A program made the translations under genes and the position numbers. Positions 10,716 through 21,313 of a stretch of DNA of 64,000 nucleotides are shown piece by piece. The stretch lies in NCBI GenBank assembly GCA_965223265.1, contig OZ244999.1, positions 5,856,001 through 5,920,000 on the forward strand, given 5' to 3'. The stretch's first letter is position 1, and every line of letters begins with the position of its first letter. Origin of the DNA: Planctomycetota bacterium (GTDB taxonomy: Bacteria > Planctomycetota > UBA8108 > SXIK01). Below the pieces are notes generated by a model, which did no database searches, was not told where the DNA came from, and was given only the letters and a program-made list of their open reading frames with translations.

Positions 10716-11984
10716 GGGTATGTTAGCGATCCACGACTTCGACACGATCGAAGGTTCCGCGCCCGAAGACCTCCGGTTCGTACATCGCCTCAACTCTCGC
10801 TGCCGGCGTCAAGAAGAGACCTGGGGTCGTCGCGCGGACGAGGTATTCATGCACGTAGAATCCTTGCGGTAGCGACGTAACAAAAACCTCGGCCCGATCG
10901 TCGTGATGCTTTGACGCGGAGAAACGGAGACGCGTCAGCTCACCAGGTCCCCCCTTCAAGCGGCGAGACCACCGGGGCAAATCGCGACCCGCCTCGAATC
11001 CGGCAGGATAGGGATCGACGAGCGCGACATGACGTCGGCTCCGCGGCGTCATGAGGAATAGTCGCACGCGCACGAGCGCACCAGCCTTGACGCTTGCTCT
11101 GCCATCCGCGAGAAACTCGACATCCGACGGGTCATGGGCACCTTCGTAGCGGCGCGACACTTCGAAGCCGGCTGCAACTGCCGGGACGTCGACGTGTCCG
11201 AGCGCGTACTCGAGACGCAACCAGTAGAAAAGACGCCCCATTCCCTCTTGGGCGATCGTCAGCGACGCGACGTTGCCAGCCCCGGTTGTCAGATAGGAGC
11301 CGGGGACGTTCAACATCTGCGCGGGCGCCTGTCGCCCCTCGAAGACTCGCTCACCGAGAAACTTCTCGCCCAGCCAAGTACGCGCAACAAAACGCGGTGA
11401 CTCACGCTCAACCGCCGCGAAGTACCGACCAAGGGCCACGAGAGCGAACGCGTTCTCTTCGGTTGTACGCCACCGGCCCTGCTGCTGTCGACGAACGAGA
11501 CCGTCGGCGAGCTTGCCGACCAGTTCGTCTTCAGGATCACCGCCAGCAAGAACCTCAAGAAAAACCGCATGCGCCCGCAGTGGCGACGGGAGCACGCTTT
11601 CCCACGATGCATCCATCGCAGTCTCGATCTGGGCGCCCCGTGCCGTCTCGTACACTTGATTCTCCAGGTAGCGACGGATCTCAGCAGCCACGTCGCGTGC
11701 GTGTTCGTCGCACTGAAAAACCTCCAGAAGCCAGGCAAGCGCCTCTGCAGGATACCGATCCATCGGCGTCCTCAAAAACCACGTTCGAGCACCGCGACGC
11801 AGTGGAGTAGCCGCCGCAGAAGTAACGCCCCGACGAAGATGCTGGACATAGAAAGCGTACGATCGGATCAGCAACACTTCGGCCGAAAGGGACGATACGT
11901 CGTCAGTAGGCCGAAGGGTTGTGGGCGCGACGGTGTGTGTGTCCGACGGTGTTTGTGAGGCTGGGGTCGGTTGCGCTCCCGCCT

Positions 11985-12150
11985 CGGTTTGCGTGGGCGT
12001 TTGCGTGGGCGTTTGCGTGGGCGTTTGCGTGGGCGTGGGCGTGGGCGTGGGCGCGTGCGTGGGCGCGTGCGTGGGCACGTGCGACTGCGATTGCGTGGGC
12101 GATTGCGTGGGCGATTGCGTGGGCGATTGCGATTGCGTGGGCGTGGGCGT
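11985..12150. repeat. 6/12-bp tandem repeats encoding a Pro-Thr/Gln-rich linker in the A2M frame
   Basis: (GCGTGGGCGTTT)n, (GCGTGG)n and (GCGTGGGCGATT)n translate as TPTPTQSQSPTQ... on the minus strand. Confidence 0.9.
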
Positions 12151-12171
12151 ATTCGTAACGCTATCCGCGTG

Positions 12172-12345
12172 CGCCTCTGCCTCTGTCTCTGTCTCTGCCT
12201 CTGTCTCTGCCTCTGTCTCTGTCTCTGTCTCTGTCTCTGTCTCTGTCTCTGTCTCTGTCTCTGTCTCCGTCTCTGTCTCTGTCTCTGTCTCCGTCTCTGT
12301 CTCTGTCTCTGCCTCTGTCTCTGTCTCTGTCTCTGTCTCTGCCTC
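12172..12345. repeat. Hexanucleotide microsatellite (GTCTCT/GCCTCT)n, ~29 units, encoding (Glu-Thr/Ala)n; segment 1
   Basis: Read directly; the same repeat resumes at 14000-14052 and 15722-15806. Confidence 0.95.
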
Positions 12346-12396
12346 AGAAACTATGGGCCGTCCTCGTGTACCATAGTCTTTTTTAGGAGTGAAGAG

Positions 12397-13524
12397 ATGG
12401 CAACAAGAACGACCCAGGGACAGCTTACCGACATGAGCGAAGTTCTTCACGTGGCAATTGACGTTGGCAACACAACGTGGAAGCTCGTCAGCGGTGTTGC
12501 GGGGAGCCGGCCGCGCTGCAGGACGGTCGAGGCGGGAAACCTTGCGGAGTTTCAGGAAGAGCTCTCGAAAGCCAAGGCGCGCTTGCGCCTTTCGCCGCAA
12601 GCTGAGGTGGTGAGCTGCTACGAAGCTGGCCGCGATGGATTCTGGCTGCACCGTTGGCTCGTAGACAGTGGGATCCACAACGCCGTCATTGACCCGGCTA
12701 GCTGCGAGGTCGATCAGCGCGCCAAGCGTCAAAAGACCGATCGCCTCGACGGAGAGAAGATGCTCGATCTTTTGATCCGTCACCACGGCTCGTCGCGCAG
12801 CCCACTGCGCGTTGTCAACGTGCCGAGCGTGCAGATCGAGGACGAGCGCCGCCTGCCAAGAGAGCGTCAGCGCCTTGTCAAGGATCGCACTCGGCACATC
12901 AATCGCCTCAAGGACATGTTGATCAAGTTCGGCATCCGCGCCCGCCTCAAGAAGCTGCCTGAAATCATCGACACGTTACGCGGCCCCGATGGATCTGCGA
13001 TCCCCCCGCATGCCAAGGCAGGCATGCTACGCGAGCACGCTCGGCTGCAGCTTGTCGAAGAGCAAATCGCTGAGATTGAGGCCGAGACTCTCGAAACGCT
13101 CACCAACTCGCCGGAGGCCTGCAAGAAAGTCGGCAAGCTCAACAGCCTGCGCGGCATCGGCATGTACACTGCCGCAACGCTCTACTACGAGTTCTTCTGG
13201 CGTAAGTTCAACAATCGCCGTGAAATCGGAGCCCTGGCAGGAATGGTGAGCGTTCCCTGGCGCAGTGACAACATCAAACGCGAGCAAGGAATCAGCAAGG
13301 CTGGCAACGGGCGTGTACGCACACTCATGGTTCAGGCTGCCTGGAACTGGCTGCGCTTTCAGCCACAGAGCCAGCTATCTCAATGGTTCTGCCAGCGCTA
13401 TGGGCCAGGCACCAAGCGCTCGCGCAAGGCGGGAATCGTCGCCTTAGCCAGAAAGCTGCTCATTTCGCTCTGGCGATTCCTCAGCACTGACGTACCACCT
13501 CCGTTGGCACGGCTCAGTTCCTAA
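12397..13524 (+). CDS. IS110-family DEDD transposase/recombinase
   Basis: AIDVG, YEAG, KTDRLD (DEDD); LRGIG, WRSD, ISKAGNGRVR, ALARKL; AGGAG RBS before ATG 12397. Confidence 0.95.
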   Translation: MATRTTQGQLTDMSEVLHVAIDVGNTTWKLVSGVAGSRPRCRTVEAGNLAEFQEELSKAKARLRLSPQAEVVSCYEAGRDGFWLHRWLVDSGIHNAVIDPASCEVDQRAKRQKTDRLDGEKMLDLLIRHHGSSRSPLRVVNVPSVQIEDERRLPRERQRLVKDRTRHINRLKDMLIKFGIRARLKKLPEIIDTLRGPDGSAIPPHAKAGMLREHARLQLVEEQIAEIEAETLETLTNSPEACKKVGKLNSLRGIGMYTAATLYYEFFWRKFNNRREIGALAGMVSVPWRSDNIKREQGISKAGNGRVRTLMVQAAWNWLRFQPQSQLSQWFCQRYGPGTKRSRKAGIVALARKLLISLWRFLSTDVPPPLARLSS

Positions 13525-13977
13525 TTCGATGACCAGCAACAGGCTCAACACACCAACCCAACTCAAACGGAGGGACCTGCAGGGCTGACTCGGATTCTTG
13601 GCCGACTGTAGGACGCGTTCGAGCAGAGGCTGGGCTGGCTTTCCAAGCCGCCGTGCTTCTCAGAAGGAACCGTCCTTGTCGGTTCGCCTGCCGCGATGCG
13701 AACGCAGTATCAGGTGATCCGCCAGAGAGCGGACACGCATAGGAGTTGGCCGCGAGGCGCTTTGCCGCCCCGGCGCTCAGAGCGAACCGAACACTTGGCT
13801 TCTTTACCGCCAGCCCAAAGACAACACAGCACTACTACGAAAATGATCTCTCCCGCGTGCGGTACCTTCCGGGCTGCACAGAGCCCGGGGGCGCTCTACC
13901 CGCCGCCCCCCGGACCCCCAGGCAACCCAACTGCCCCACGTCGGATTGAAGACAATCAAGAAAAGAAAGCTCCCCCG
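13525..13977 (+). ncRNA. Putative bridge/seek RNA region of element A
   Basis: Downstream non-coding position typical of the IS1111 group; GCAGAGGC (13623-13630) is the reverse complement of the right target flank 14001-14008; structure not verified. Confidence 0.55.
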
Positions 13978-13999
13978 TTGACAACAGTCGGACCATAGG

Positions 14000-14052
14000 T
14001 GCCTCTGCCTCTGTCTCTGCCTCTGCCTCTGTCTCTGCCTCTGTCTCTGCCT
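14000..14052. repeat. Microsatellite segment 2 trapped between the two IS elements
   Basis: tgcctctgcctctgtctctgcctc..., reading AETEAETEAEAETEAEA on the minus strand. Confidence 0.95.
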
Positions 14053-14076
14053 TCCATGAGAAGGCCAAAAAGTCAA

Positions 14077-14554
14077 GAGAGGCGAACGTGGTCGCCGCCC
14101 GAGCGCAGCGAGGTCAATCGTTCTCTGCGCCGAGCGTAGCGAAGGTCAGTTGTAGGGTGGGCGGTCTACGCGGCAGGGAGGGGCCCGCGAGCGGCAATGA
14201 GTCCGCACGCGAAGCGTCTCGTTTGGCGGCCAGGCAGCAAATGCCCTTGCTGCCTGGCCAAGACCGTTTTGGTGCGCTGAGGTTTCCTGAGATTCTCGAA
14301 AGAGTCTATCGCGCGGTTGAAGCCAGCCTTCCATACGCACTTTGGGTGAGGAGTCTGTCCTGGAGTCCTCTGTGCAAGTTGGGGTCCGAACCGTCGTGGT
14401 GCTGCACACTCTGTCGCGAACTCCTGGTATGATCGAAGGAAATTTGGACGCCCTCGATCGGTTCAGTGCAGAGGTCGCAGTCACCAAGACGAGACTTTTC
14501 ACGCGGGTAGATCCTTCAGAGGCTTTTCAGTCGCCTCGTAATGACACAGGCGGC
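14077..14554 (-). ncRNA. Putative bridge RNA region of element B
   Basis: Guide-like GCGACAGAG (14409-14417) matches the target flank 8/9 and lies between two stems; ATGGAAG (14328-14334) is identical to the element end plus core. Confidence 0.7.
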
Positions 14555-15631
14555 TCAGGCCGAGCGACGCGTCGAGCGCGAGGCGTTGTAGAGTGGATCG
14601 TAGCGCTCGCCGCTGGCCCAGAGGTGATGCATCAGCACGGCGAGCTTTCGTGCCACGGCGACCGTGGCTTGCTTTTTGCCCCTGGCAGCGCCGCGCTGTC
14701 CCAGCCGCTCACCGAAGCGCCTTAGATCGCAGTCCTCCCCGAACGGCCCCAAGATATAATGCGCGCTGCCGACAAGCAGTCGGCGTAGGTAGCCGTTGCC
14801 ATACTTCGAAATACGAAGCTGTGGAGTCCTCGACGAAGAGTCGTGCTGCTTCGGGACGAGTCCGAGATAGGCCCCGACCTTGCGGCTCTTGGAGAAACGC
14901 TCCGGGCTCTCCAGGCTCAAGACAAACGCCAGTGCCGTCAGTGGCCCTACGCCGTTGATCTCTTGAAGGCGCTTGGTCTCTGGGTACTTCTCTGAGAGCG
15001 CCTTGATCTCTCTGTCGTAGCTGCGCACCGTGGCGCTAAGCTGTCCGATCTGCTCGAGCATCGGTAGCACCGCCGCCTCGAGCTCCTCGGGAATATCCTC
15101 CCTGACTTTGTAGTGGAAGGCGGCGCTTGAGCAGCTCTTGAGGCGATACCCGCTCGACTTGACGAGACCTCGCACGCTGTTGATCAGTGTCGTGCGAGTG
15201 CGCACTACTGCGTCACGGGCACGGATGACTGCCAGGTCGTTTTGGGCTGAGAGCTGGCGGTGACGAACCGGTCGCAACAGGCGCGGGCTGCCCCAGCCCA
15301 GCGTCGCCAGGGTGACGGCGTCGAGCTCGTCGTTCTTGCGACCGTTGGCGGCAAGAGCACGCCCTGCGCAGACAGGATTGGCAACGATCACCTCGAAGCC
15401 GAGCTCTTCGAGCACCGCACTGACCCACGGCGAGTGCGTGCCCGCCTCGCAGACCACGCGCGAGCCTCGCGGGAACTCATCAAAGCGCCTAGCGAGCGCC
15501 GAGCGTGTCGTCGCCACGCGCTCGTTGGCGAGGATCTCTCCATCGAGCGTTATCGCCACCAAGTGGCTAAGGCGGTCGCCGAGATCAAGGCCGATAGACA
15601 ACATACGCTGTGTTTGATTACTTTGGGACAT
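14555..15631 (-). CDS. IS110-family DEDD transposase/recombinase
   Basis: GLDLG, CEAG, KNDELD (DEDD); INGVG, YLGLVP..HDSS, ISKYGNGYLR, AVARKLA. Confidence 0.96.
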   Translation of the reverse strand: MSQSNQTQRMLSIGLDLGDRLSHLVAITLDGEILANERVATTRSALARRFDEFPRGSRVVCEAGTHSPWVSAVLEELGFEVIVANPVCAGRALAANGRKNDELDAVTLATLGWGSPRLLRPVRHRQLSAQNDLAVIRARDAVVRTRTTLINSVRGLVKSSGYRLKSCSSAAFHYKVREDIPEELEAAVLPMLEQIGQLSATVRSYDREIKALSEKYPETKRLQEINGVGPLTALAFVLSLESPERFSKSRKVGAYLGLVPKQHDSSSRTPQLRISKYGNGYLRRLLVGSAHYILGPFGEDCDLRRFGERLGQRGAARGKKQATVAVARKLAVLMHHLWASGERYDPLYNASRSTRRSA

Positions 15632-15721
15632 GGTCAGTCTCTCCTTCTGGGTTCAAAGCCCGGTTAATGTTGCAGATCCTTCTTCGGATACTGCGTGGAG
15701 GGACTGGCCTTCTCATCCCAT

Positions 15722-15806
15722 CTCTGTCTCCGTCTCTGTCTCCGTCTCTGTCTCCGTCTCTGTCTCTGTCTCTGCCTCTGTCTCTGTCTTCGTCTCCGTC
15801 TCCGTC
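15722..15806. repeat. Microsatellite segment 3 (GTCTCY)n
   Basis: Encodes TETETKTETEAETETETE at the end of the A2M N-terminal ORF. Confidence 0.95.
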
Positions 15807-18800
15807 CCCTCCAACTCAAAACCCCGCTCCGCGAACTCCTCCCATCGATCGAGGACACCGGCATTCACGGACAAGCCGGCACGTTCGGCGCGCACGAGAG
15901 CGTGGGCGACGTGACAACTGAGATACGGATCCACCTCGCCGCCTTGCCAGTACGGCCAGCCTCCGCCGCGCTGCAATCTTTCGAGTCGAAGGATATCGTC
16001 TTCGATGCGACTGCGAAGATGCTCCGCGCTCGGGAGTCCCATGAGCTCGAACGCCGCAGGAAACTCCAAAAACGCGGTCATGCCGAGCAGTCGCGATGCG
16101 ATCTGTTCGCCACAGTCATATGGATACTCGCCGAGGTAGCGCAGCGACTCAGCCAGTGTCTCTAGTCGCGTCGCCGTCAAGCGCACACTAAGGCCGCCGC
16201 GGTTCGCAAGCGCTGCGTTTGGTCGTGCGAGCGCCTCGCGCACCACGGCTGCTTGATCACCCATCGCCTCCAACTCTCCAGTGGCGACGACGGTCTCGAC
16301 GGGCGTGGGTTCGTGCACGGGGAACGACAATTCCGCTGCGTCCGAGAACTCTGCTGCAGTCGCCGCAGCTTGGACGATCGCCCTGCCGCCCTCCATGGCA
16401 AGCGCCGGAAACCGCACCTCGCGGCGGTCACGTGCGGCAACAGCGACTCGACTGCCGATCAAGTCTGGCAGGCTTTCGCCGTCGTCAGGCTTGGCGCGCC
16501 ATGAAATGCCGCGTGCCCGCATTGCCAAGTCGACGTTCAGTGTTTCGTCGGTGGCGTTCTGCAGGACGACGGTCATGTCGAACCGATCGCCGCGCCGCAC
16601 GAATCGCGGTGGCGATGGCCGCACAGCCAGCGGCAAGGTCGCTGTGACAACGGCAGAACCACTGCCGAATCGCTTCGTCGTGGCAGCGACCGCAGTGATT
16701 CGATAGCGGGTCAGAGTCCCTGGCAACGTCAAGGTCACGACAGCCTTGCCGTTTGCATCCGTCTGCACTGCAGGTGCGAAGAGTGCTGTCGCACGAAAGT
16801 CGCGCCGCAGTGCGATCGGCACGTCGCCCCCACTGGAGAGCGACGTCAAGACGGCACGCGCACCGGGAACGGCGTTAGGGTCTTCGGAGTCGAGCGCCAA
16901 GTTCGGAGGGCGGAAAATTCGTGATTCGCGGACGAGCTCGGACGCTTCTTTTGATGACGGCTCGAGGAACGACGCCATGCTCCAATGGCCGCGCACTTTC
17001 GTGTACGGGTAAGGATGGAACGTATCCACGAGGTCCGGTGCCTCGTAGTGTGCCAAGGCATGTATGGAATCATCGACGACGAGCACGCACACCTCCGCGT
17101 CGGAGACAGGACGCTCTCGGTGGTCTCGGACGGTGACATCGATCGTGGTCGATGCACCGGGAGCGAGCGCAGGATCATGCGGTGCGACATCGACGTGTAG
17201 ACGTCGCGATGCAAGCGAAACGTTCAGCGTCACAGTCGCGACGAGTGATGTCGGCCTGGTGGGTGCGGTCGCATCTTGAAGCTGCCTCGCATCGCGCGGC
17301 AGTGTCGCCAGTACGTCAACGTGCAGAAAAAGTTGAGGCAAGTGCTCTTCGCCGATCAAAAACTCGAGCGTGTGATTCGCGCCGTCCATGTCGAAACGCT
17401 GTGTCGACAGAAGGCCACTTCGGATCAAGGTCGCGACGCCCGACGCTGGAGAATAGGGCGACTTCACCAGCACACGCGCGATGTCACCTGGCTCATAGAC
17501 CTGTCGGTCAGGGACGAGCTCGAGTCGTTCAAGACGTGGCGTGCGCGGAGCATGGCGCTCGATTCCAGAGACCCAGAGAGTGCGCTCGGCAACAGCCCTG
17601 CGGCCGTCCGGATCGACGGTCTCGGCGCGGACGACGTGGGTTCCGGCGCGCTGAGGAATGAAATCGACGCTGACCGGTTGGTCGGCGGAGATGACCCGTG
17701 TTGCTTGCTGGTCCGACTCCACCCGTAGGCGGCCATTCGGCCCATCAACCCATTCGGTCCGCACCATCTCGAACGCGATCGGCACACCGGACTTCGTCTT
17801 CCCCGCCGGATCGACAACGACGGCCTCGAGCGGCACCGACGCGCCGGCGGCGACAAACGATTCACTGGTGCGCAGTCCAACCAGCCTAGAGGACGGAAGG
17901 ACGACGAGCTCAGACCAGGTGCGCCTCTCGAATCGGGTCACATCCAAAACTCTTGCCGTCAGGTAGACCGACATAGGCTCCGATGAACGTACGTGCGCAA
18001 AGTCGACGCGCAGTCGATGGATGCCGGTCGCGTCCGTTCGCCCGCTGAGCTCGACCTCATGAACAGTCCCCTCCGAGTGGAACTCCTCATCGAAATCCCC
18101 CCACCAGGGCGACCAGCGGCCAAAGGTGAACGAATCCCATCCTGGGATAGAAACCTGCGCCGGGGACGAGCTCGCCTGCCAGCGGACGAACGCGTTCGCG
18201 AGCGGCCCGGACGACAGATAGTGCGCGGCCAGCGTCACCTCGGCGGACCCGCCGCTAAAATGTGGCCCGGGGTCAGGAATGCAGGATATCTCGAATTCAG
18301 GACGGCGGTACTCTCGCACGATCACGTTTCGCGACGCAACCTCCTCGCCGCGAGCGAACACCTTGACCTTGGGCCATTCGTTACCCGTTGGTAACCGAAA
18401 GGAAAAATCGAAACCACCGAGCGGCGTGAGGGCCGCCGCTCCTTCGCGCGTATGGCTCTCGCCGGCGATCACGTAGCGCACCTCGTGGATGTCTGTCGGA
18501 AGCCCGACGTCACCGCCGCGCCGGTGGTCTACGCGCCGTAGCCATCCCTTGACGTGGACCTCGTCTCCGGGGCGATAGACTCCGCGATCGAGGAGAAGCT
18601 CGCAGCGGTCAGATCGATGCGGCACCTCGTCGAAGCGCCAGGCGGAACGGCCGCCGTAGTCGTAGGGATCCAAGAACGCCGAGTCGTCTCGCAAGCGTGC
18701 GACCAGAAGAGGCGGTTCGCCGATCATGCCAGCGAGGTCGAGCGTCGCGAAGTCGCCGTCGGTCACACCAGCTGCCGACGTCGGCGGGTAGAAGGAAACC

Positions 18801-21313
18801 GCTGCGCCATCGACGTTCGTCCGATCGCTTAGTCGCGTCACCCATGCAGTCAACTTCGATGGATCCCAAAGCGCTAGCAGTTGTAGCTGGGTGCGTTCGA
18901 GCCAAATGGCCCGAGGCCGAGTGTCGTAAGCTCGCTCAAACTGCGGGGCGTTGACACGAACAACCGCGACTGCATGGCCAACCCCGCCCGGAAATGCACG
19001 CGTCAAGTTCAGCCGCGTCTCAACGAGCTCATTGACATGCCCGCGCACTGAGATGCGCTCACTGAAGAGGTGAACACCGGGAACCTGTAGTGCGCGATCA
19101 CGCTGCAATTCCTCGTCGCGATCGACTTCCTCGAGCCACTCACGGTAGCGAAGAAATCGCCCCCAATCCGCAACTTCCACGCGGTACACGGAGAGGTCGA
19201 TCGATTCGAGGTTGATCGCATAGCAAGAGAGCCCCGGCGGCCTGTCGGGGTCGAGGACGACTTTCTTTTCCGAACCCACGAAGTGGAGCCCTGGTCGCTC
19301 GCGCGTTTCGTCGAAGTGCAGTGTCACGTCGCCGCCGAGGGTCCGCCCCTGATGGTCACGGAGGCTGCTGGGAAGGGTCACTTGAAACGCTGTGGCGTCG
19401 GTGTCGTCGATGACGATCGTGAGGCTCTGACGTTCTACCTCGATGCGACTCGAGGTCACAGCCGGGCAGATTCCAATCCTTGAATGATCGCCAAGGGATG
19501 ATGGATCGAGCGGTGCTGTGAACGAGATTCCAAGCTCGACTCGATCGAAGCCGTCGGCGCCGTGGTACTCGACCGCGAAATCGTCACGTTTCTTCTCGCG
19601 GTACACCTCGAAGCGAAGACGCTCAACGCGATCGCTGACCTGCTCGCCGACGAGGGAACGAACTCCAGGTTTGAGCTCGACGTCGACGTGATCCGAAAGC
19701 AACTCGGGGACTCGGTAAGCAACCCAGTTCCCAGGCCGCACAGCCCTCCGAACCGACCCCCTTTGGGGATTCAACGGTTGCTCCCAGTCGTTGCTGTCCG
19801 ACTGAAGCTCTCGCTGCTTCAAAGAGTAGTGTTCCTCGACGTCTTCCCACGTCAAACGCTCTACTGCGACCCGCTTCCCCTCGCAGCTCACAACCAGTCG
19901 CTCCTGCACCGAAGCTACATCGATCGGCTGGTTGAAGACGAGAACGATGGGTGCATTGCTGTCGACGCGCCAGTCGGATGGATGAAAACGTACGAGCCGG
20001 GGCGGGGCTGTTGAAAACTCGAAGACTGCCGTCTCTTCGAGCAGGGCTCCCGAAAGTGACGTGAGGGAGCGAGGCACTTCGACGCGATAGCGCGTCGCCA
20101 TCGGAAAAAACCGTTCCTGCGGTGTAGTGCCAGGGACGAAAAGAAGTGTCCGTGTGTCCAACCACCTCCAGTTTCCTACCGCATGCGGCTTCAGCTGCAG
20201 CGACGGCGCGGAAGAAGGAACGAGCTGCATTCCAAGCGGCACCATCGGCTGCGAGAAGGTGACCCGGATATGATCCGCGCGTTCGACACCCCCCTGCGGG
20301 GAGAAACGTACGATGCGAAGAGGCTCGCGTGCGTCTGCGTTTCCAGACACGTCCTCGGCGCCGCGGCGAGTCGTGTTCGACGCCAGACCGACGCGGCGAG
20401 ACGGCGGCGTTGTCGAAGGTGAGGCGGGAAGAGGTCGCTGCTCGGTCGGTAGCTGCAGCAGCGCGTCCTGCTTCTTCTCTGGAGCCTTCAGATGCGGCAG
20501 GCGGTAGAAGATGCTCGCAGCCTTGGAAGAGGCGAGCGGTTCGGGAGTGCATGGCGCGGCGCGGTCTCGATGCAACGAGCCGACAGTGGGAGGCCTCGCA
20601 GGCGCCGACGCCGACTCGGAGAGTCGAAACGGCGGTTCATCCGCATCGCTCTCAATGGGCCAACCGAACGCCGCTTCGAACGTCGCTCCGAGCGTCACCG
20701 CCACCAGAGAGGAGAGAAACCAGGGAAAGGATGCGCGTCGGCTGCAGTCTGGCCGGAGCCCCCGTCGAAGTCGCCGTCGAGGTCGCCGAGATCGCCGTCG
20801 CATCGCGCCCTCCTGGAACTTCTCCATCCCTGAAGCTTTCGACTCAATGCTTCAGTGTAACTGCGCACGGTCACGGAACTGTCATGAAAAGAAAAACGCT
20901 GCCTCTTGGCTTCTTGAGCGGGGAGAGAAGTCGAGCACTGCGCGAGGACGACGCAAATTCGGACGGCACTCACGGCGAGCTTTCGAGAGCCAAAGGCCGA
21001 CACCATCTCCGGTTCCGCTTCGGTCTCTTTCTCGAACTCCGAGTTCGTGTCGGTTCTATGTCCGTAATCCGACTCCGTCCCCCGATACCTACCCCAGAAT
21101 GGCAAGTAAGAACGCCGAAGAGCGCACTACGGAGACCCAAAACTGCTGGTGCCCCCGTTCGAAGAGTGAAAACGACTGATGTCTACTCTACATTTCGCAG
21201 GCTGGGAGTTTATCTCGCAGTCGCGCAGGTCGTTCTGCCGTTCCGCGAGTGCCACACAACTCTTTATATGTCGCCTTCTGTCACAGGCCGGCATCGGAAG
21301 CTCAAAAGCGATA

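Follow-up and report, generated by a model that had tools for sequence, protein, structure and literature searches.

Insertion sequences of the IS110 family, including its IS1111 group, are known to target dispersed repeats such as repetitive extragenic palindromic (REP) units, attC sites, transposon ends and short unique sequences. Two members of this family, here called elements A and B, lie side by side in a hexanucleotide microsatellite of a Planctomycetota bacterium, within a 64,000-nucleotide stretch that was analysed as a whole (the window; contig OZ244999.1, positions 5,856,001 to 5,920,000). Their sequences make convergent RNA-guided specialisation on one hexamer simple-sequence repeat very probable. 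IS1111 elements carry 7-nt and 3-nt extensions outside sub-terminal inverted repeats, and their seekRNA presents a complement of the top strand first and a match to the bottom strand second (PMC11187229). The bridge RNA's target-binding loop has a loop-hairpin-loop layout, which is also that of the scaffolds predicted in A and B (PMC11208160). IS110 insertion normally destroys its own target, so that target immunity is not needed (10.64898/2026.08.14.744561).

The whole window is held by one 9.18-Mb contig (9,179,496 bp). Period-6 arrays of CTCTGY/CTCCGT units occupy positions 12175-12345, 14000-14052 and 15721-15806, and two IS110-family genes stand between them. Elements A (12346-13999) and B (14053-15723) converge in a tail-to-tail arrangement, and the 53-bp array at 14000-14052 separates them. 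The parts of the locus are as follows.

12346 to 13999, plus strand: element A, 1654 bp, IS110 family, IS1111-type (eight copies with the same boundaries).
12346 to 12362, plus strand: left end of A, the 7-nt extension AGAAACT followed by inverted repeat ATGGGCCGTC (sequence, relatives).
13987 to 13999, plus strand: right end of A, inverted repeat GTCGGACCAT followed by the 3-nt extension AGG (sequence, relatives).
12397 to 13524, plus strand: tnpA, a 375-aa DEDD transposase (Pfam, NCBIfam, alignment).
14053 to 15723, minus strand: element B, 1671 bp, IS110 family, IS1111-type (copy comparison, relatives).
15706 to 15723, minus strand: left end of B, read on the minus strand as the 7-nt extension AGATGGG and inverted repeat ATGAGAAGGCC.
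14053 to 14066, minus strand: right end of B, read on the minus strand as inverted repeat GGCCTTCTCAT and the extension GGA.
14555 to 15631, minus strand: tnpB, a 358-aa DEDD transposase (Pfam, NCBIfam, alignment).
12175 to 12345, no strand assigned: left (CTCTGY)n array of 28.5 units, whose minus strand codes for (Thr/Ala-Glu)n of a split alpha-2-macroglobulin.
14000 to 14052, no strand assigned: inter-element array, 53 bp (sequence, repeat scan).
15724 to 15806, no strand assigned: right (CTCYGT)n array outside element B (sequence, repeat scan).

The inverted repeats of A are complementary at 8 of 10 positions, and its ends are homologous to those of 36 relatives, which read AGATACT-ATGAGGGC on the left and carry an AGA extension on the right. 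Those of B pair at all positions (11/11), and its ends are homologous to those of about 50 relatives. On the plus strand, CT borders B on each side (AG in transposase orientation), one copy being counted as the first two bases of B. Boxes resembling a -35 promoter element stand close to both right ends: TTGACA in A (13978-13983) and TTGACT in B. The preliminary description of this DNA had reported two IS110 elements tail to tail about 50 bp apart in one hexamer repeat, with different inverted repeats and a CT core on each side of B, and the measured spacing, the two repeat pairs and the plus-strand CT agree with it.

Both transposases match PF01548 (DEDD_Tnp_IS110) and PF02371 (Transposase_20), and both exceed the 140-bit cutoff of NF033542, 'IS110 family RNA-guided transposase', tnpA with 194 bits and tnpB with 197. 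All 52 aligned clade members share residues E76/E62, D115/D101, D118/D104 and S290/S265 (tnpA/tnpB) without variation; the first catalytic D lies in an I/L-D-V/L-G motif in both proteins, as placed by eye, the alignment being without N-termini. A and B also share the traits of the IS1111 type, namely sub-terminal inverted repeats, a 7-nt left and a 3-nt right extension, and a long 3' non-coding region, with 51 nt upstream and 475 nt downstream of tnpA, and 92 and 502 nt around tnpB. Like the IS1111 group, both insert in a site- and orientation-specific manner without duplication, while the inverted repeats of A are shorter and less perfect than in the definition quoted in PMC11187229 (about 11-13 bp). 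By sequence, A and B are best regarded as distant relatives, both IS110 family and IS1111-type. The recombinases had earlier been called divergent and unrelated. Divergence is evident, with 27% identity over about 300 aa, and a nucleotide comparison of A with B gives no significant similarity (best E = 0.34); unrelated is nevertheless too strong a word for proteins that align at E = 2e-13 and elements with shared IS1111-type ends.

Comparison across the genome reveals eight copies of A at four loci, 99.7-100% identical over aligned stretches: one in the window, one at 743.5 kb, one at 906 kb and five in tandem at 487-496 kb. Three of the five tandem copies (487257-488999, 490744-492486 and 494267-496009) contain an 88-bp tandem duplication of non-coding sequence (window 13842-13929), and its joint is also present in short-read contigs of runs X1-X3. 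Element B has four copies at three loci, 97.4-100% identical: the window copy, one at 402-404 kb and a tandem pair at 5.604-5.608 Mb. The copy at 402104-404165 carries its last 198 bp as three tandem copies, with the repeat junction at an internal AGGCAGCA that resembles the right half-site. The copy at 5604924-5606460 lacks the final 134 bp and borders directly on the array, without a true right junction. Short right-end fragments occur at four more places in the genome.

Hexamer arrays flank every full copy on both sides, in one orientation relative to the transposase and in one hexamer phase. The joined sites of A read YCTC^TG-YYTYTGY in all eight copies, seven of which share the identical 13-mer CCTCTGCCTCTGC and the eighth of which differs by two C-to-T changes. 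Those of B read GWCRG^AG-GCRGAGR in three of four copies, the exception being the 3'-truncated one. Strict arrays, defined as at least four hexamer units, number 72 and cover 4,956 of 9,179,496 bp, or 0.054% of the genome. Full copies occur at seven independent loci, and every one of these is in a hexamer array, which is far beyond chance and cannot be explained by it. A whole-genome check for copies of either element in unrelated non-repeat flanks, as proposed in the preliminary description, found none.

Most arrays carry no element. Empty A sites number 56 in the strict form against about 1 expected from composition, and 360 when wobble is tolerated against about 7; empty B sites number 127 against about 2.5. 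Some arrays lie in long open reading frames (ORFs) as (Glu-Thr/Ala/Ser)n or, on the opposite strand, (Ser-Val/Ala/Asp)n, and others lie outside any long ORF. The pattern (GAGRCR)4 occurs 469 times here and 1 to 104 times in 4 of 40 related genomes, and it was not found in three genomes of the same family; a reversed-pattern control is uninformative, since the repeat reads alike backwards. Relatives of tnpA were found in none of the 40 related genomes at E <= 1e-30 and in one of 400 genomes of the phylum (47% identity), while the search for tnpB relatives in the 40 related genomes gave a single partial match (48%). Relatives of A and B were thus essentially not found in these related genomes, and hexamer arrays therefore exist without the elements.

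More distant relatives make it possible to look for a guide RNA. The collection consists of 80 tnpA-related loci from genomes and 80 tnpB-related loci from metagenomes, and each fold alignment combines A or B with 19 relatives. The tnpA relatives reach 47% identity at best and come mostly from Burkholderiales, with others from Gemmatimonadota and Pirellulales; the best tnpB relatives reach 55% where the match is partial and 53% where it is of near-full length. No close sister element of A or B was found among these relatives. A period-6 scan of 161 relative loci (L009-L169) gave arrays in two only (L128 and L152), besides two N runs, and neither array abuts the element.

In each clade the downstream region aligns to a conserved scaffold in which a closing helix surrounds an internal loop. 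The order is a variable 5' loop strand (guide 1), a hairpin, a variable 3' strand (guide 2) and then AGAT, after which come another helix and a segment repeating the right end of the element (ATGGAAG, ATAGAAG or ATAAGAG). This second-loop segment tracks the right-end extension of each relative, for example ATGGAAG versus ATAGAAG. The fold of the B clade comprises 17 pairs with 96.8% of cells paired and 8 pairs changed on both sides; its covariation score is reached by none of 500 shuffles, and pairing drops to 25-51% when partners are slid. The fold of the A clade comprises 28 pairs with 95.5% of cells paired and 14 pairs changed on both sides, again with 0 of 500 shuffles reaching the score and 29-48% pairing when partners are slid. 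The corresponding features in the window are listed below.

13602 to 13751, plus strand: seekRNA/bridge-RNA-like scaffold of A (alignment with relatives).
13622 to 13629, plus strand: guide 1 of A, GCAGAGGC, complementary at 8 of 8 positions to the top strand of the right target GCCTCTGC.
13657 to 13664, plus strand: guide 2 of A, TCTC-AG-AA, in the sense of the left flank YCTC and the first bases of the element.
13739 to 13746, plus strand: second-loop segment of A, CATAGGAG, equal to the right end CATAGG plus AG, which fits the predicted circle junction (by eye).
14320 to 14496, minus strand: seekRNA/bridge-RNA-like scaffold of B (alignment with relatives).
14465 to 14474, minus strand: guide 1 of B, CCTCTGC-A-CT, which complements AG-GCAGAGG of the right target apart from one bulged A; copies differ at position 14474.
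14409 to 14415, minus strand: guide 2 of B, GACAGAG, which is the left flank GACAG with AG added; position 14412 differs between copies in step with the flank.
14326 to 14334, minus strand: second-loop segment of B, ATGGAAGGC, equal to the right end ATGGA plus the flank AGGC (alignment, relatives).

The guides follow a rule that holds across the relatives. With a match defined as at least 7 contiguous nt complementary to the element's right flank, guide 1 is the reverse complement of its own right flank in 16 of 20 members of the B clade and 14 of 20 of the A clade; among guides paired with the flanks of other elements as a control, the counts fall to 2 of 378 and 9 of 372. The relatives in both alignments target quite different sequences. 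Guide 2 in the clade alignments repeats the left flank's final 4-7 nt and continues into the element's first bases. Placing the guides by 6-7-mers shared between the non-coding region and the target was tried and rejected, as it gave many ambiguous matches, and they were placed by alignment with relatives instead.

Guide 1 of A and guide 1 of B are mutually complementary and read the same repeat from opposite strands, which fits the opposite orientation of A and B in the arrays. The copies of B add variation of their own. In the window copy (B1), with flank GACAG^AG, guide 2 reads GACAGAG; in the other three (B2-B4), with left flanks GACGG, GTCGG and GACGG, it reads GACGGAG, an overall match in four of four copies. 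Guide 1 of B starts with C in two copies and T in two, at a position that faces the variable R of the repeat, and both variable guide positions recur in short-read contigs of runs X1-X4. In A as in B, guide bases opposite variable R/Y positions are often U or G and thus wobble-capable; the A copy at 906 kb has T in place of C opposite a guide G and is the only informative copy for copy-to-copy variation at the A crossover. The proposal that targets are specified by RNA gains support from homology, given the conserved fold, the guide-flank rule and guides complementary to the repeat, and the suggestion that the two lineages were programmed independently is likewise favoured by the opposite-strand reading and the lack of nucleotide similarity.

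The insertions also interrupt a large, recognisable host gene for a protease trap, whose halves lie on either side of the pair.

15724 to 20827, minus strand: 5' part of the alpha-2-macroglobulin gene, N-terminal, with A2M, bait region and MG2 (domain matches; CGEQ motif by translation).
10723 to 12345, minus strand: 3' part of the alpha-2-macroglobulin gene, C-terminal, with the low-complexity tract, the rest of the thioester domain and bMG10 (domain matches, joining).

The ORF from 20827 to 15713 on the minus strand encodes the N-terminal 1704 aa of a bacterial alpha-2-macroglobulin according to Pfam, and the bMG10 end lies within 12180-10723 on the same strand. In silico removal of 12346-13999 and 14053-15723 produces a single in-frame alpha-2-macroglobulin ORF of 2259 aa, and the array joined across both deletions is perfectly periodic, without target duplication. 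This bears out the earlier reading of a coding repeat entered without a classical duplication. In the restored tract, a continuous (Thr/Ala-Glu) run, estimated from an excerpt at about 45 dipeptides, precedes (Pro-Thr-Gln/Ser) repeats. The related genome G017 encodes an ortholog (49% identity, locus L182) that has about 25 ordinary residues where the low-complexity tract stands here. Because this ortholog is short there and deletion restores one ORF, the tract is a lineage-specific expansion within the thioester domain, and A and B are later insertions into a once-intact gene.

The evidence also has to be set against several points that weigh on the RNA-guided reading. Boundaries were set by comparing copies and relatives, and array periodicity leaves them ambiguous by multiples of 6. 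Guide 1 of B needs a one-base bulge, and in B1 its distal C faces an A of its own flank, leaving 6 contiguous nt; relatives L094 and L124 show similar irregularities beside the crossover. Guide 2 of A spans only 4 nt of the left flank. In most relatives AG starts both the element and the right flank, while the right flank of A starts with TG. Because TG shares the dinucleotide AG only in part, the core of A is partial, its exact crossover dinucleotide cannot be fixed, and several registers remain possible. The covariation in B comes from four copies of two to three lineages, with a chance probability of about 1 in 8 to 1 in 16 by the author's estimate, which is not a computed value. A search of Rfam 15 over 12100-15900 gave no match at E <= 1, which says only that nothing reached the threshold. 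No RNA run contained more than 5% of the sampled words. Runs X5-X22, which contained 5-6% of them, were left out of account. Finally, none of the short-read contigs from runs X1-X4 spans a junction, as all of them end at the arrays.

The last point counts in favour of a repeat-induced misassembly, as it leaves the junctions without independent read support. Such an artefact is nonetheless highly improbable, the least credible of the alternatives: the genome is one 9.18-Mb contig, the two parts of the host gene stand on either side of the pair in correct order, strand and frame, and the same element-array junctions occur at seven loci. Word depth relative to the flanks, about 6-8x for A and 3x for B, also roughly fits eight and four copies, though depth is not copy number.

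Two further explanations also seem quite unlikely. One is that the copies spread by homologous recombination or gene conversion between arrays after one ancient chance insertion. The arrays are indeed similar in sequence at about 58 merged loci, and the five-copy A cluster alternates variants with and without the 88-bp duplication, as unequal crossing-over of a two-copy unit predicts. Yet junction-adjacent bases differ by locus (GCCTC versus GTCTC; GACAG, GACGG and GTCGG), which argues against co-conversion of the flanks, and phase and orientation are constant. Repeat-complementary sequence, moreover, lies exactly at the guide positions defined by relatives with unrelated targets, and both elements would have needed a chance start in 0.054% of the genome. 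The other possibility, about as improbable, is that the transposase protein or the structure of the repeat DNA chooses the target and that the non-coding complementarity is incidental. Guides and targets match over short stretches of 7-8 nt, with imperfections in B, and a repetitive target raises the odds of complementary words in a 500-nt region, where many 6-mers were found. Against this, homologous loop positions match their own, differing flanks in 30 of 40 elements (A and B included) and in 11 of 750 controls, the guide polymorphisms of B track the flanks, and the RNA mechanism is experimentally established for the family (PMC11187229, PMC11208160).

Convergent RNA-guided specialisation would work as follows. 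A and B would be active or recently active IS1111-type elements, each with a DEDD recombinase and a 3' non-coding seekRNA/bridge-RNA-like transcript that is made, bound by the recombinase and used to direct the reaction. Its target-binding internal loop would hold two guides, of which guide 1 would pair with the top strand of the right half-site, and guide 2 would carry the sense of the left half-site and the first bases of the element. The guides of A would read YCTC^TG-CCTCTGC and those of B, on the opposite strand, GACRG^AG-GCAGAGR, each corresponding to two units of the same hexamer. Because the guides would read two units of the hexamer, insertion would be specific for orientation and phase and free of duplication, and it would be possible at every unit of a suitable array. 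Intact sites would persist in the array on both sides of an insertion, so that elements could pile up, as in the A/B pair, the five tandem A copies at 487-496 kb and the two tandem B copies at 5.60 Mb.

A more speculative extension, which appears doubtful at present, is that the elements also shape the microsatellites, making the arrays RNA-guided, reversible switches and hotspots of length variation in host genes. The recombinase and its RNA might then join two units of one array, causing contraction or expansion, or two arrays, causing inversion or deletion, and precise excision might restore a coding tract. The abundance of arrays (469 against 0-104 in 40 relatives) could in part reflect co-evolution with the elements.

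Several observations concern the repeats and remnants around these copies. Solo right ends stand beside hexamer arrays (B, 64-79 bp; A, 65 bp with 94% identity; 9028002-9028079, 5652441-5652504 and 6414623-6414687) and are probably remnants of older insertions. The low-complexity insert of the alpha-2-macroglobulin measures about 190 aa inside the thioester domain (11900-12345 and 15724-15810, minus strand). At window 11987-12150, directly next to the (CTCTGY)n array, stands another coding repeat, (GCGTGG/GCGTTT)n, whose minus strand codes for Pro-Thr-Gln/His-Ala repeats; both repeat types also lie side by side near other copies or fragments at 404 kb, 906 kb, 5652 kb, 6414 kb and 9028 kb.

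Genome-wide comparison shows further elements associated with repeats. A 41-bp palindromic unit, AAGACCGGACGGCACACGGGAGTGTGCCTGCTACTTTCAGC, has 50 exact occurrences and 116 BLAST matches of at least 35 nt outside the window, nearly always within a second hexamer microsatellite family, (CACGCW)n, and often in regular period-59 arrays. Its sites include 1672817-1673925, 2061827-2062276, 2580641-2581163, 4207195-4207647, 4855453-4856051 and 5650371-5650933 (G000:C1). This unit is thus another small element that inhabits microsatellites here. Besides A and B there is a third element of IS1111 type, C (about 2059850-2061540, L181), which is present as a single copy and whose transposase is 43-44% identical to tnpB. 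Its left flank consists of two GCAAACGAA units, which its guide 2 matches; its guide 1 predicts a right half-site like the left-flank repeat and not the actual right flank, and its right inverted repeat is degenerate. Element C was set aside as a covariation test on account of this degenerate right end. Among the relatives of B, a sub-clade (L143-L169; 40-42% identity) with inverted repeat ATGAGTAGGCC has the palindrome GGTGCC^AGGCACC as its insertion site, a motif that recurs in its flanks in a REP-like manner, and another relative (L130; 51% identity) lies at GACGCAG^AGGCGCAGAGAC, a target resembling that of B.

With the microsatellite, a known mechanism gains a target niche that is new. Sites recur in it every 6 bp, and it stays intact on both sides of an insertion, varies at wobble-compatible positions and often lies in genes. 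Two lineages reaching the repeat independently on opposite strands would amount to a natural demonstration of free guide reprogramming. They suggest a route to multi-copy or repeat-directed insertion by bridge recombinases and link RNA-guided recombination, in a form open to testing, to bacterial microsatellite or gene on-off dynamics. In open-access full texts, supplements excluded, no IS110/IS1111 insertion into microsatellites was found; co-occurrences of the terms, judged by titles and the beginnings of abstracts, came from Coxiella typing and from Neisseria or other genome papers.

Among the closest described systems are ISEc11, ISKpn4, ISPst6 and ISPa11 (Siddiquee et al. 2024, PMC11187229). 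A and B share with them the DEDD transposase, sub-terminal inverted repeats, 7-nt and 3-nt extensions, a long 3' non-coding region, insertion without duplication in one orientation and the same order of RNA guides. Unlike these elements, which target a short unique sequence, attC or REP, A and B target two units of a hexanucleotide microsatellite, and their arrays often lie in coding low-complexity tracts. The bridge RNA of IS621, an IS110-group element (Durrant et al. [quoted passage not shown] In IS621 the RNA lies in the left end, the core is CT in transposase orientation and the target is REP-like, whereas A and B carry theirs in the right end, and the shared dinucleotide is AG in B and partial in A (AG versus TG). 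ISPpu9 and ISPpu10 of Pseudomonas putida (PMC12288879; 10.64898/2026.03.19.712850) also use a multi-copy repeat as a landing pad and reach several copies per genome, but their REP is a dispersed palindromic unit that insertion splits, whereas in a microsatellite the sites on both sides stay intact. In expanded and tandem IS110 loci (10.64898/2026.08.14.744561), whole modules and non-coding units beside the transposase are duplicated in tandem, with counterparts here in the five-copy A cluster, the 88-bp duplication of A and the 198-bp right-end triplication of B. Unlike usual IS110 loci in that account, the array regenerates sites on both sides after insertion, which would explain both the A/B pair and the tandem clusters.

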